A DNA stretch of 64,000 nt. Source: an uncultured Alphaproteobacteria bacterium. GTDB taxonomy: Bacteria > Pseudomonadota > Alphaproteobacteria > Micropepsales > Micropepsaceae. The notes below the pieces were generated by a model. That model did not search any database. It worked only from the letters and a program-made list of their open reading frames with translations, and had not been told where the DNA came from. The translations under genes were made by a program, and so were the position numbers. Below, piece after piece: positions 54,148 through 63,245 of the stretch. The stretch's first letter is position 1; each line of letters opens with the position of its first letter. The stretch lies in NCBI GenBank assembly GCA_963708555.1, contig CAVPTF010000014.1:33123-97122 (forward strand), in the 5' to 3' direction.

Positions 54148-54222
<75 letters not shown>

Positions 54223-54645: not shown

Positions 54646-54885
54646 AATGCTCCCCCTAGAACCTCAACTAGACCATCTATCGTACGAATGGAATCCGCTA
54701 ACTTGACGCCCCGTCACCCAGGCAATCTGAATCTCTCATGAAAGTTTGTATTAGGCATCCGAATTGCGGACTCAGCGTAAACGCGCGGTGCTAGGGTCCC
54801 ATATGTTGGGCGGGAAACCGCAGCTTCACCTTGATCGCGCGGCCCGCGAGTGTTCCATTGGGCGGCGCAAGTCGCGAAGTGGCCG

Positions 54886-55818
54886 ATGACCGGAAACGCC
54901 GCCCTCAGCTCCGCCCGTCCAGCCGATCCCGGCTCGGAGGAGGCGCTTGCCGACGCCAATCTCCGCGCCCTTGCGGCGGAGCCGGTGGTCATCCGGAAGC
55001 CCCGCGGTCAAAGGGTGCCTTTCATCTTTGCCTCGCCGCATAGCGGCCGGTTCTATCCGTTAAGCTTCGCCCAGAGCTCGCGCCTCGATGCCATCAGCCT
55101 CCGCCGCTCCGAGGACGCTTTCGTCGACGAGCTGTTCGACAGCGTCACCGAGCTGGGCGCGCCCATGATCTGCGCGCGGTTCCCTCGCGCCTTCGTCGAT
55201 GCGAACCGCGCGCCCGGCGAGCTCGATCCCGCGATGTTCGATGCGCCCCTGAATGCGGTCGGACCGCGCTCGCCCCGCGTGGCTGCGGGGCTCGGCGTGA
55301 TCCCGCGCGTGGTCCGCGACGGTCTCGAGATCTACGGCACGCGCCTCCCCGCCGGCGAAGCCGTGTTCCGGCTCGAGCACTTCTATCGCCCCTACCATGC
55401 GGCGCTCGCCGGTCTCGTGGAGCAGACGCGCGCCGAATTCGGCGTGGCCGTGGTCATCGATTGCCACTCCATGCCGCCGCCGGCCAAGGCTCATGACATC
55501 GTGCTCGGCGATTGCTATGGCGAGGCGGCCGCTCCCGAGCTGATCGGGCAGATGCAGAAAATCCTTTCCGGACTGGGCTTCTCGGTCGCTCGCAACGCGC
55601 CCTATGCCGGCGGCTACACCACGCATCTCTACGGCCGGCCGCACGAAGGCGTCCACGCGATCCAGGTCGAGGTCAGCCGCGCTCTCTATCTCGATGAGAC
55701 CCTCATGGAGAAAAGCGCAGGCTTCGCGTCCTGCCGTGATCGCCTGCGCGCGTTCGCGGCGAAGCTCCTCGCCGAAGCGGGCGCCGTTCTCAAAACGGCT
55801 CGCCGCGCGCCGCGCTGA
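54886..55818 (+). CDS. N-formylglutamate amidohydrolase family protein
   Basis: ...VPFIFASPHSGRFYP...RFPRAFVDANRAPGELD...VVIDCHSMP...YAGGYTT...HAIQVEVSRALY. The start is taken as ATG 54886 (MTGNAAL). Confidence 0.8.
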   Translation: MTGNAALSSARPADPGSEEALADANLRALAAEPVVIRKPRGQRVPFIFASPHSGRFYPLSFAQSSRLDAISLRRSEDAFVDELFDSVTELGAPMICARFPRAFVDANRAPGELDPAMFDAPLNAVGPRSPRVAAGLGVIPRVVRDGLEIYGTRLPAGEAVFRLEHFYRPYHAALAGLVEQTRAEFGVAVVIDCHSMPPPAKAHDIVLGDCYGEAAAPELIGQMQKILSGLGFSVARNAPYAGGYTTHLYGRPHEGVHAIQVEVSRALYLDETLMEKSAGFASCRDRLRAFAAKLLAEAGAVLKTARRAPR

Positions 55819-55832
55819 CCCCGTCCAAAGCG

Positions 55833-55861
55833 AAAAAAAGGGCCGTCCCGAAGGACGGCCC
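55833..55861 (-). terminator. intrinsic terminator (minus-strand orientation)
   Basis: On the minus strand, GGGCCGUCC-UUCG-GGACGGCCC (9-bp GC stem, UUCG loop) is followed by U7 (A7 at 55833-55839 on the plus strand). In the plus orientation it is followed only by AAGUUUA. Confidence 0.8.
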
Positions 55862-55925
55862 AAGTTTAGGGAGGAAACGCCCCGGACGGGGCCGCGGCAC
55901 GCAGGAGGAGTAAGCAATGCCGCAC
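55833..55925 (-). ncRNA. candidate trans-acting small RNA with two C/U-rich anti-SD motifs (possibly MmgR/alpha-r8- or AbcR-like)
   Basis: The minus strand reads: hairpin GCGGCA/UGCCGC with an 18-nt loop containing CUCCUCC; a GCCCC-GUCC-GGGGC hairpin; single-stranded GUUUCCUCCCUAAAC; then a perfect terminator plus U7. No plausible ORF is present. The 5' end is inferred from promoter-like hexamers only. Confidence 0.5.
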
Positions 55926-55931
55926 CGCAGT

Positions 55932-55960
55932 AATATTCTATATTGCATGTGCGAACGCAA
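55932..55960 (-). promoter_or_regulatory. sigma-70-like promoter candidate for the sRNA
   Basis: On the minus strand, TTGCGT (55960-55955), a 17-nt spacer, then AATATT (55937-55932). An overlapping TAGAAT (55940-55935) is an alternative -10. Confidence 0.35.
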
Positions 55961-55979
55961 GCGCTTTTTCAGATCTCCA

Positions 55980-55997
55980 CAGTCATAGTGGTGTCAC
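55980..55997 (+). promoter_or_regulatory. candidate Pho box (PhoB site)
   Basis: CAGTCAT-AGTG-GTGTCAC compared with the consensus CTGTCAT-N4-CTGTCAT matches 11 of 14 positions. It lies in the AT-rich region about 235 nt upstream of plcP. Confidence 0.35.
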
Positions 55998-56229
55998 AAA
56001 ATACACTACATATTACAAGATGTTATCTGTTAAATCCGGAGTGCTTCTTCCGTGTTCTGCAATGCACAAAAGATATGCAAGAACGGCGTTAAGCATCCAT
56101 CGAACCATCATCGAACTGCCACAGGGGAGTCATCGAATCAGGGCACAGCACTCGGGAAGTCGGCGATTCGGTTGTCCGGCAACGGCGCTGAAATCCTGGC
56201 TTGTGTAACGAGTAACCCAGGAGTGCTCG

Positions 56230-57078
56230 ATGAGATCACCCCAAGAGGCGCTGGCCCCGGATCAGGCGCGCCGTCACCGCACCATCTTCATCTCCGATGT
56301 CCATCTCGGCACGCCCGGCTGCAAGGCCGAGCTGCTCGCGGATTTTCTCACCCACAACGACTGCAGGACGCTCTACCTCGTCGGCGACGTCGTCGATTTC
56401 TGGCGGCTCAAGCGGAGCTGGTTCTGGAGCGCGGCCCATAGCCGCGTGATCGACGCCATCCTCGCCAAGGTGAAGGGCGGCACGCGGGTCATCTACGTTC
56501 CAGGGAACCACGACGAGGCCTTCCGCGACTATTGCGGCGTGATGCTGGCCGGCGTCGAGCTGATGCCCGAAGCGATCCATCGCACCGCGGATGGGCGCGA
56601 GTTCCTGGTGATCCACGGCGATGCCTTCGACGGGATCGTCACCTATGTGCGCTGGCTCGCGCTGCTCGGCGACCGCGCCTACGCCGCAGCGCTTTGGCTC
56701 AACGATGTGGTCAATGTCGCCCGCCGCCGCTTCGGACTGCCGTACTGGTCGCTCTCGGCCTTCCTGAAGCACAAGGTGAAGAACGCGGCCGCCTTCATCA
56801 CCGATTTCGAGGACGCGGTCGCCCGCGCCGCGCATTTGCGCGGCGTCGACGGCGTGGTCTGCGGGCACATCCACCATGCGCAGATCAAGACCATCAACGG
56901 CGTCCTCTACTGCAATGACGGCGACTGGGTCGAAAGCTGCACGGCGCTGACCGAGGATGCGCGCGGACGCCTGGAAATCGTCGAGTGGACGCGCTTCGCC
57001 TACGAACGCAACCGCGCCGCGCAGCACGGAGCGCGCAGCCCCGTGTTTCATGGTCCGCGCCAGCCCGTGGCGGCCTGA
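56230..57078 (+). CDS. plcP: LpxH-family metallophosphoesterase, PlcP-like phospholipase C (often annotated UDP-2,3-diacylglucosamine diphosphatase)
   Basis: Metallophosphoesterase motifs IFISDVHLG, LVGDVVD, VPGNHD, VIHGD and VCGHIHH. It is immediately followed by a GT4 glycosyltransferase, the plcP-agt arrangement. Confidence 0.65.
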   Translation: MRSPQEALAPDQARRHRTIFISDVHLGTPGCKAELLADFLTHNDCRTLYLVGDVVDFWRLKRSWFWSAAHSRVIDAILAKVKGGTRVIYVPGNHDEAFRDYCGVMLAGVELMPEAIHRTADGREFLVIHGDAFDGIVTYVRWLALLGDRAYAAALWLNDVVNVARRRFGLPYWSLSAFLKHKVKNAAAFITDFEDAVARAAHLRGVDGVVCGHIHHAQIKTINGVLYCNDGDWVESCTALTEDARGRLEIVEWTRFAYERNRAAQHGARSPVFHGPRQPVAA

Positions 57079-57097
57079 GCTGTCGCTCGAGCTCCCG

Positions 57098-58198
57098 ATG
57101 GCGACGCTTTCCCGAGTGCTTCCAGCTCCGCGCGTTGCGCGGCGCGCGGCCATTGCGCAGGTCGCTACACGGCGGCCCGCGGAAGGCCTGCGCATCCTGA
57201 TCGTCACCGACGCCTGGAGGCCGCAGGTGAACGGCGTCGTGCGGACTCTGGAATCGCTCGCCCGCGAGCTTGCGCTCATCGGCCACGAGGTGCGCTTCGC
57301 GACGCCCGAGCATCTGATGACCGTGCCGCTTCCCACTTATCCCGAGATCCGGCTCGCCCTGTTTCCGCGGCAAGCCATCCTCGGCGCTCTCAAGGCGTTC
57401 GAGCCCGATGCGATCCACATCGCGACCGAAGGTCCGATGGGACTCTCCGCGCGCTCGATCTGCATCGAGCGCGGCTTGAGCTTCACAACCTCGTTCCACA
57501 CCCGGTTTCCGGATTATGTGCGCGCGCGCTTTCCCTTCATTCCCGAAGCCGCGATCTACCGGGCGCTGAGAGCGTTTCACAGGCCGGTCACCGCCATCAT
57601 GGCCGCGACGCACTCGCTGAAGCGGGAACTGGAGAGCCGGGGCTTCCGCAATGTCCGGCTGTGGTCGCGCGGCGTCGATACCGATCTCTTCAAGCCCACA
57701 CCGCGCGATGCGTTCGAAGAACTCGGGCTCTCGCTCAAGCGGCCCGTGTTTCTCTATGTCGGTCGGGTCGCGGTGGAGAAGAACGTCGAAGCCTTTCTCC
57801 GGCTCGATCTGCCGGGAACGAAGGTCGTCGTTGGCGACGGTCCGCAGCGCGCGAGCCTTCAGGCCCGCTATCCGGACGCGCATTTCCTAGGGAACCGCCG
57901 GGGCGATGAATTGTCGCGGCTCTACGCATCGAGCGACGTCTTCGTCTTTCCCAGCCGCACGGACACATACGGTCTGGTCATTTTGGAGGCACTCGCATGC
58001 GGAACCCCGGTGGCGGCGTATCCCGTGCCCGGACCGCTCGATGTCGTCGGAAACGCGGCCATTGCGGCCCTGAACGAGGATTTGCGCGCGGCCTGTCTGT
58101 CGGCGCTCACCATCTCAGCCCAAGCCTGCCGCGAATTTGCGCTCACGCGCACGTGGCGCACCTGCGCTAAGCAATTCCTGGAGAATCTCGCCTATTAA
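57098..58198 (+). CDS. GT4-family glycosyltransferase (Agt-like glycolipid synthase candidate)
   Basis: LRILIVTDAWRPQVNGVVRTLESL...FLYVGRVAVEKNVEAFL...VFVFPSRTDTYGLVILEALACGTPVAA contains the E-x7-E region. It starts 20 nt after the plcP stop. Confidence 0.7.
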   Translation: MATLSRVLPAPRVARRAAIAQVATRRPAEGLRILIVTDAWRPQVNGVVRTLESLARELALIGHEVRFATPEHLMTVPLPTYPEIRLALFPRQAILGALKAFEPDAIHIATEGPMGLSARSICIERGLSFTTSFHTRFPDYVRARFPFIPEAAIYRALRAFHRPVTAIMAATHSLKRELESRGFRNVRLWSRGVDTDLFKPTPRDAFEELGLSLKRPVFLYVGRVAVEKNVEAFLRLDLPGTKVVVGDGPQRASLQARYPDAHFLGNRRGDELSRLYASSDVFVFPSRTDTYGLVILEALACGTPVAAYPVPGPLDVVGNAAIAALNEDLRAACLSALTISAQACREFALTRTWRTCAKQFLENLAY

Positions 58199-63210: not shown

Positions 63211-63245
63211 AAGCGCGCTCCGCGAAAGCGGGGCGCGCTTTTTTC
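63211..63245 (+). terminator. intrinsic terminator of hsp20
   Basis: AAGCGCGCUCCGC-GAAA-GCGGGGCGCGCUU followed by UUUUUUC, 20 nt after the stop codon. Confidence 0.8.

Follow-up and report, generated by a model that had tools for sequence, protein, structure and literature searches.

At the locus considered here, which forms part of an analysed stretch of 64 kb (the window), a small regulatory RNA is very probably encoded on the minus strand between protein-coding genes (Table 1). Tail-to-tail with it lies the gene for an N-formylglutamate amidohydrolase (FGase), which ends 14 nt short of the sRNA 3′ end and whose true start is probably near 54997. On the other side, a divergent gene for a calcineurin-type, PlcP-like phosphoesterase is followed by one for a GT4 glycosyltransferase. 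A first-pass annotation of this DNA had named the amidohydrolase and plcP as the neighbours, and both assignments are borne out, the former by its Pfam match.

The RNA would end in a Rho-independent terminator that reads GGGCCGUCC-UUCG-GGACGGCCC followed by U7; the stem-loop occupies 55861–55840 and the U-tract 55839–55833. If strict criteria are applied to the whole window (a perfect stem, at least five G-C pairs and at least six T within the next eight bases), two sites are found: this one, and another on the plus strand at 63213–63238. This agrees with the first-pass annotation, which had counted the hairpin as one of only two strong terminators and had added that no minus-strand gene ends there. 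Indeed, the only minus-strand open reading frames (ORFs) at this place are a 285-residue shadow ORF antisense to FGase and a 56-residue ORF, and a Pfam search gave no match for either of them. The shorter one begins at an ATG at 55948–55946 (52 codons) or at an upstream TTG at 55960 (56 codons), and ends at 55790. The earlier annotation had given the ATG as 55946 and the length as about 58 codons, and the values stated here replace them.

Table 1. Features of the sRNA locus, with positions counted along the 64-kb window.
Feature	Position	Strand	Remarks
FGase (N-formylglutamate amidohydrolase) gene	54850–55818	plus	PF05013, E = 6e-70; convergent
Predicted primary sRNA transcript	55926–55833	minus	~93–94 nt; 5′ end predicted to within ~2 nt
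RF00519 match	55899–55825	minus	model positions 1–77, 63.3 bits
−35-like hexamer TTGCGT	55960–55955	minus	CTTGnn kept in relatives
−10-like hexamer AATATT	55937–55932	minus	mATATT in relatives
SL0, 5′-terminal hairpin	55924–55893	minus	10-bp stem, one bulged U, 11-nt loop; MFE folds
CUCCUCCU in the SL0 apical loop	55910–55903	minus	candidate second anti-Shine-Dalgarno seed
SL1, short GC hairpin GCCCC-GUCC-GGGGC	55892–55879	minus	Rfam consensus structure and fold
Single-stranded GUUUCCUCCCUAAACUU, 17 nt	55878–55862	minus	unpaired in MFE and centroid structures
Rho-independent terminator	55861–55833	minus	9-bp stem (8 G-C pairs), UUCG loop, U7
Dyad CGCACATGCA between −35 and −10	55953–55944	minus	CGCAnnTGCA in the subclade
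PhaR/AniA-type 21-nt motif match	55915–55935	unstranded	core TGCGGTGCG at 55929–55921; overlaps −10, +1 and the SL0 5′ arm
Distal PhaR-like box CTTTTGTGCATTGCAGAACAC	56051–56071	unstranded	core TGCATTGCA at 56066–56058; ~135 nt upstream of the sRNA start

The family to which the RNA belongs is indicated by an Rfam covariance-model scan. Over the 64-kb window this yields two matches, one to a tRNA and one to RF00519 (suhB/MmgR, αr8), which Rfam names 'Makes More Granules Regulator RNA'. The latter covers the full model, all 77 of its positions, and reaches 63.3 bits (E = 1.1e-10), the curated gathering score being 41 bits; an sRNA of this type is present in the window as a single copy. The AbcR (αr15) and CcsR families gave no match at the gathering score in the whole window, and none at E values up to 5 in a permissive scan of 55780–56260. 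Below-threshold matches in this interval are driven by the terminator, and no second family comes near its threshold. The first-pass annotation had proposed a minus-strand sRNA candidate, had suggested the MmgR/alpha-r8 family, and had named a cmscan run against this family and those of AbcR and CcsR as the appropriate check. The candidate has thereby become a full-model match, and the suggested family is the only one above threshold at the locus. Extending an RF00519-type model in the 5′ direction raises the score of the window sequence from 63 to 107 bits, with the match of the extended model, R1, then reaching from 55835 to 55929.

Two traits define the αR8 family, namely a Rho-independent terminator and, 3′ of a weak hairpin, an internal UUUCCUCCCU that is single-stranded (PMC12559287). 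Usually there is one copy per species, adjoining a putative FGase gene, and members are found throughout the orders of the Alphaproteobacteria with the exception of the Rickettsiales (PMC12559287). All of the published traits are found at this locus: the terminator, the single-stranded UUUCCUCCCU after a weak hairpin, and the adjoining FGase gene. SL1 corresponds to the weak hairpin upstream of the seed, and the exact 10-mer follows directly on its 3′ side, at 55877–55868; it is invariant in all homologs. The host is likewise alphaproteobacterial, with the nearest FGase relatives in metagenome-assembled genomes (MAGs) of Micropepsaceae/Rhizomicrobium. Both the UUUCCUCCCU-type motif and the synteny with FGase had been given in the first-pass annotation as marks of the family, and both are stated in the literature (PMC12559287).

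The relatives used for comparison comprise 80 loci retrieved with the FGase protein. A full-length homolog of the sRNA stands tail-to-tail after FGase in 71 of them, in Micropepsaceae/Rhizomicrobium as well as in other alphaproteobacteria; the Rfam threshold was passed by 18 of the 20 relatives tested. The gene order tRNA-Val, FGase, sRNA, PlcP is common to many loci. The closest among the 80 FGase loci are Micropepsaceae/Rhizomicrobium MAGs, with 69–72% amino acid identity, and contigs from soil metagenomes are closer still (84–91% FGase identity). A metagenome scan with CCGGGGCGTTTCCTCCC gave 120 matches, about two dozen of which are true members of the subclade; most of the 120 were discarded as chance occurrences in coding DNA or as an unrelated conserved element. 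The subclade to which the window belongs is one of Micropepsaceae-like soil bacteria.

Upstream of the RNA, the −35-like and −10-like hexamers are separated by a spacer of 17 nt, in a region richer in A and T than its surroundings (GC content 0.39–0.48 vs 0.64–0.70 in the flanks). A generic sigma-70 scan of the sequence did not call TTGCGT-N17-AATATT as a promoter; the assignment is made because both boxes are conserved in relatives. In almost all homologs CTTG precedes the −10 box at a distance of 17–18 nt, and about 60 of them have CATATT or AATATT immediately before the transcribed TGCrGyGCGG. The same pair of boxes in an AT-rich stretch had already been pointed out, and is found at 55960–55932; the alternative −10 box offered at the time, TAGAAT, would give a spacer of 14 nt only and is unlikely.

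Together, the spacing from the −10 box and homology with Caulobacter place the start of transcription at about 55926–55924. For Caulobacter, the in-vitro templates of three mapped RNAs (SisA, SisC and SisD) begin with GGUGAGGC, and the counterpart of this start in the window is GGUGCGGC at 55926–55919; the homologous GGUGNGGC forms the 5′ start of mapped Caulobacter family members. Transcription would thus begin at this point, because the conserved CTTGnn and mATATT lie just upstream of it and because the starts of SisA, SisC and SisD are homologous. A transcript of 90–95 nt, as estimated in the first-pass annotation, fits the conserved promoter and these homologous 5′ ends.

The 94-nt model RNA (55926–55833) has a predicted folding energy of −46.1 kcal/mol (z = −4.3 vs shuffles). 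The fold reproduces the hairpins described in the first-pass annotation, which had listed folding and a covariation alignment among its checks: a first hairpin that displays CUCCUCC (55910–55904), now seen to lie within the 11-nt apical loop UUACUCCUCCU (55913–55903) of SL0, then a short GC hairpin, and a single-stranded GUUUCCUCCCUAAAC (55878–55864). Covariation was assessed on 67 distinct sequences, which are phylogenetically related and whose covariance-model alignment is fitted to the model structure and so leans towards it; in the whole-RNA model, 16 of 20 pairs have changed on both sides, and 92.9% of cells are paired vs 35–59% when the register is slid. All eight modelled pairs of SL0 show compensatory changes in this set, with 90–92% of cells paired vs the same 35–59%. 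For the terminator stem, the covariance-model alignment gives six of eight pairs covarying among relatives and 99.6% of cells paired.

SL0 requires separate consideration. RF00519 begins at 55899, within the 3′ arm of this hairpin, and models the bases concerned as unpaired; nor is the hairpin among the listed defining traits of the αr8 family. When sequences are folded one by one, a hairpin appears at the SL0 position in each of about 80 distinct homologs, with stems that vary highly in sequence and length. In the alignment of 23 subclade sequences, on which the structure was specified by hand, 99% of cells are paired vs about 45% with a slid register, and four of the eight SL0 pairs have changed on both sides, by way of G-C→G·U→A-U series. 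In 68 of 80 homologs it is the sense strand that forms the more stable SL0 (116 G·U pairs), although the relatedness of the sequences inflates the p-value of this statistic. Because fold stability favours the sense strand, SL0 would be an RNA helix rather than a DNA palindrome, and hence transcribed. An alignment of 60 homologs with MAFFT, analysed with RNAalifold, found almost no structure, because MAFFT misaligned the variable-length hairpins in register; it was superseded by the per-sequence folding, the hand-specified subclade structure and the covariance-model realignment. On this comparative evidence, SL0 is read as a real RNA helix outside the Rfam model.

Collectively, these data indicate that a trans-acting regulatory sRNA of the αr8 family, about 93 nt long, is encoded at 55926–55833 (minus strand); the probability of this reading is put at about 0.92. 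Two readings would dispense with an sRNA altogether. The hairpin at 55840–55861 might merely terminate the plus-strand FGase gene, with the upstream motifs having arisen by chance. It is found 22 nt past the FGase stop codon (55818), there is no other terminator after FGase, and it may well contribute some FGase termination. However, it is in the minus-strand reading that the stem runs into U7; read as plus strand, it runs into AAGUUUAGGG, which has just 3 U. Moreover, a curated covariance model recognises the minus-strand sequence upstream of the stem with E = 1e-10, and these 60 nt are both structured and conserved. As a terminator alone would leave this conserved upstream RNA unexplained, the reading is rejected as very improbable. 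There is even less reason to expect a small protein encoded by the 52–56-codon ORF (55960/55948–55790, minus strand): such an ORF does exist, but it passes through the terminator and continues antisense to FGase, and relatives carry 1- and 2-nt indels within it. A conserved reading frame through the sRNA core was sought in 22 relatives and not found; the ORFs that cross the core there agree neither in frame nor in length (17 to 411 codons), in line with the first-pass view that the ORF looks spurious. Conservation tracks RNA pairing rather than codons.

The third alternative retains the αr8 family and shifts the 5′ end. It envisages a shorter RNA of about 70–77 nt, resembling the MmgR of Sinorhizobium meliloti, which would start within or past SL0, at about 55905–55900, and lack the 5′ hairpin; the 5′ arm TGCGGTGCGG would then serve only as a DNA operator of the PhaR/AniA type, and CUCCUCC would lie outside the RNA. 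The reported length of S. meliloti MmgR is 77 nt, the Rfam model starts at 55899 with the 3′ arm of SL0 as an unpaired tail, and the 5′ arm fits the PhaR motif at 20 of 21 degenerate positions. Some lineages may accordingly have a shorter 5′ end, and the Northern doublet below 100 nt in S. meliloti also means that two RNA species may coexist. This has to be set against the covarying SL0 pairs with their stepwise G-C to A-U series, and against the strand bias in fold stability, which is expected of an RNA helix and not of a DNA operator with its symmetry; pairing is also maintained although sequence and length vary freely in the inner stem and loop. Furthermore, a conserved −10-like box is lacking on the downstream side of the dyad, in contrast to the −35 and −10 boxes upstream, which are kept at proper spacing, and the Caulobacter members begin at the homologous GGUGNGGC. 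The shorter RNA is accordingly regarded as improbable, and the RNA of about 93 nt, with SL0 at its 5′ end, is retained.

The loop of SL0 contains a second C/U-rich motif. Among the 23 subclade sequences, which were gathered with a pattern lying outside the SL0 loop, the 3′ half of this loop, UCCUCCU (55909–55903), shows little or no variation. The column entropy of the motif in the subclade alignment is 0–0.26; comparison values from the same subclade are 0.13 for the canonical seed region, 0.58 for the SL1 loop and 1.08 for the terminator loop. The exception, L142, is the nearest relative by FGase identity (91%) and has CUGCUCC in place of CUCCUCC, so that strict selection on the second motif becomes harder to argue. 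UCCUCCU is missing from most other clades. Some have different C/U-rich SL0 loops, for example ACCUCCCGU, and one sequence, L137, contains a complete second copy of UUUCCUCCC; in the largest clade the SL0 loops are small and have no such motif. Across the 80 homologs, CCUCC occurs within the apical loop in 18. The UCCUCCU motif is thus lineage-specific and appears to be under selection, and it may act as a second, accessory anti-Shine-Dalgarno (anti-SD) seed. Nearly any Shine-Dalgarno (SD) sequence could pair with either the 10-mer or the SL0 loop motif.

In S. meliloti, mmgR is repressed by AniA/PhaR and activated by NtrC, via a dyad between the −35 and −10 boxes. Binding of PhaR to CAATTGTGCACCGCAGCATTA in the mmgR promoter has been observed by EMSA (PMC12542648). 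Allowing at most one mismatch, the S. meliloti PhaR/AniA motif WNWDDNYGCRNYGCRNHHWNW (PMC12542648) matches the 64-kb window solely at 55915–55935; as the number of matches does not exceed chance (1 vs 6.7 expected in shuffles), only the position of this match is telling. The TGC..GC of its core is invariant in 60 homologs. The promoter-internal dyad is kept as TTCGCAnnTGCA in the 23 subclade sequences, and YGCRNYGCR cores occupy its position in other clades; its spacer is 2 nt vs 1 nt in the PhaR core. Further upstream, a YGCRNYGCR core is present at the distance of the distal box in 19 of 19 subclade loci, four of which have an upstream neighbour other than plcP, and the distal box resembles the S. 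meliloti phaP2 boxes (PMC12542648). The three dyads (55953–55944, 55929–55921 and 56066–56058) are best described as candidate PhaR/AniA operators. By analogy with S. meliloti, the dyads at the promoter and upstream of it suggest that the sRNA may be controlled by carbon-storage status.

A more far-reaching reading combines the loop motif with the operator. In this reading, which is tentative and somewhat less likely to be right than wrong, the αr8 RNA of the subclade is a dual-seed variant in which UCCUCCU is kept independently, and the DNA of the SL0 5′ arm doubles as a PhaR/AniA-type operator overlapping +1. If this were true, a second anti-SD motif would widen or sharpen the choice of targets, and one sequence would serve both transcriptional control and RNA structure. 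Target predictions for αr8 based on the 10-mer alone would also be incomplete for these lineages, should UCCUCCU be a seed.

The likely mode of action can be outlined as follows. A sigma-70-type promoter, TTGCGT-N17-AATATT, would drive transcription of the sRNA, and the strong intrinsic terminator would end it. The predicted RNA consists of SL0, SL1, a 17-nt single strand with UUUCCUCCCU, and the terminator hairpin with its U tail. By homology, the 10-mer UUUCCUCCCU would pair with the SD regions of target mRNAs with the help of Hfq; the pairing would block translation initiation, and genes for carbon metabolism, storage (PHB) and transport would be tuned in this way. Specific to this lineage, UCCUCCU in the SL0 loop might serve as an accessory seed, and dyads of the PhaR/AniA type could tie transcription of the sRNA to carbon-storage status. 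Precedents exist for several of these steps. SisA represses targets via the 10-mer in an Hfq-dependent manner, as shown by compensatory mutations (PMC12559287), and SuhB binds, together with Hfq, to the SD of thnR. In S. meliloti, where MmgR is linked to PHB and phasins, PHB rises when the core of this RNA is deleted, and in Sphingopyxis deletion of SuhB leads to over-accumulation of PHB. A discrete small transcript that associates with Hfq and acts on its targets by pairing of seed and SD is documented for S. meliloti, Caulobacter and Sphingopyxis. For the RNA in the window, the transcript, its ends, its dependence on Hfq and its targets are all predictions drawn from these relatives and from the sequence.

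The sRNA described here is an ordinary further member of the well-known αr8 family, and the main value of the analysis is one of annotation: a gene that is invisible to ORF finding is located, along with its ends, its promoter and the regulators that probably act on it, in a little-studied soil lineage close to the Micropepsaceae. The additional points are modest, namely a 5′ hairpin that shows covariation but has no place in the Rfam model, and the anti-SD-like loop conserved in the subclade. RF00519 looks 5′-truncated, as it omits this hairpin, for which covariation is seen across about 80 homologs drawn from several orders of the Alphaproteobacteria. The SL0 loop carries C/U-rich, anti-SD-like motifs in several clades, and in the subclade of the window the motif is conserved like the canonical seed. 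Finally, the conserved PhaR-like boxes suggest that the coupling between carbon storage and this sRNA, as described in S. meliloti, predates the rhizobia and extends beyond them.

Among studied members, MmgR (Sm8/SmelC689) of S. meliloti is the founding member of αr8, and the RNA in the window matches the family model over its full length. The two share the identical UUUCCUCCCU, single-stranded between the weak hairpin and the terminator, a sigma-70-type promoter with TGC/GCA dyads, and an alphaproteobacterial host. MmgR has its core at positions 33–51, whereas the RNA in the window, predicted at about 93 nt, is longer and has its core at about +50 because of its longer 5′ hairpin; the promoter-internal dyad with its 2-nt spacer is a further difference. 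The genes flanking sm8 in S. meliloti are SMc04042 and SMc04043. SisA of Caulobacter crescentus, which is sponged by CrfA, is also encoded downstream of an FGase gene and has the same 10-mer seed and a terminator. The mapped Caulobacter RNAs combine the GGUGAGGC start with a 5′-terminal hairpin, as formed by SisC, and are homologous in this respect to GGUGCGGC of the window. Caulobacter has four copies (SisA–D) with unrelated promoters, in contrast to the single copy in the window; SisA, at 83 nt, has a shorter 5′ hairpin, and its 5′ sequence is devoid of a second CCUCC motif. SuhB of Sphingopyxis granuli TFA belongs to the same family, is homologous to MmgR, and shares the Hfq-assisted binding to an SD, that of thnR; it is activated by a LysR-type regulator via a T-N11-A site, and its targets, the thn genes, are specific to that organism. 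Outside the family, AbcR1/AbcR2 and the CcsR-type sRNAs use C/U-rich anti-SD motifs, sometimes two per RNA, of which one lies in a hairpin loop. They differ from the RNA described here in sequence, structure and genomic context, and the resemblance to the combination of SL0 loop and 10-mer is one of functional analogy only.

The AT-rich stretch upstream of the predicted αr8/MmgR-family small RNA (sRNA; Rfam RF00519) carries a candidate box resembling those of PhaR/AniA, the regulator type known from S. meliloti mmgR. Its YGCRNYGCR core lies at an equal distance from the sRNA in 19/19 loci of the subclade, i.e. the window's own Micropepsaceae-like soil relatives; this spacing is kept also in loci with a gene other than plcP upstream.

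Features around the sRNA gene and elsewhere in the window
Feature	Position	Strand	Remarks
tRNA-Val, anticodon GAC	54148-54222	-	a short way upstream of FGase gene
285-codon ORF	55060-55917	-	antisense to FGase gene, extends into sRNA region
Candidate PhaR/AniA-like box CTTTTGTGCATTGCAGAACAC	56051-56071 (core 56058-56066)		AT-rich stretch separating sRNA gene from plcP
PlcP-like metallophosphoesterase, then GT4 glycosyltransferase	56230-58198	+	
Intrinsic terminator GCGCGCTCCGC-GAAA-GCGGGGCGCGC, then TTTTTTCT	63213-63238	+	

Two variant designs of SL0, the 5'-terminal hairpin of the sRNA, occur among relatives. The SL0 loop of one locus (L137:388-484, minus strand) contains a complete second UUUCCUCCC copy. 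In Fodinicurvata halophila (L064:3876-3978, minus strand), the CCUCCUCC stretch is base-paired to GAGGAGG within the SL0 stem, and the anti-SD-like run is therefore sequestered.

The gene order tRNA, N-formylglutamate amidohydrolase (FGase), sRNA is repeated in many related loci. The ORF antisense to the FGase gene, for which a Pfam search returned no match, looks like a GC-rich shadow ORF. Beside the sRNA's own terminator, the one tabulated is the sole strong intrinsic terminator in the 64-kb window.

The 17-mer pattern search for sRNA relatives also brought up a conserved element that is unrelated to the sRNA and absent from the window. Found in metagenome contigs L108, L128, L132, L136, L149, L160, L163, L165, L189, L195 and L199, it carries a promoter of the TTGACA type ahead of AATAGAATCTGAATCrGGCCGGGGCGTTTCCTCCCGGTAGCTCC...TTTCAGGTTTGCAATCCC...AACCGGGAGAA; an Rfam scan of the L149 copy gave no match at the gathering score.

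On its other side, the sRNA has a PlcP-like gene as divergent neighbour in 65 related loci. In the window, the longest ORF of the GT4 glycosyltransferase overlaps the preceding PlcP-like gene by ~120 nt. We take these two genes to resemble the PlcP-Agt pair, which has a role in phosphate-sparing lipid remodelling.
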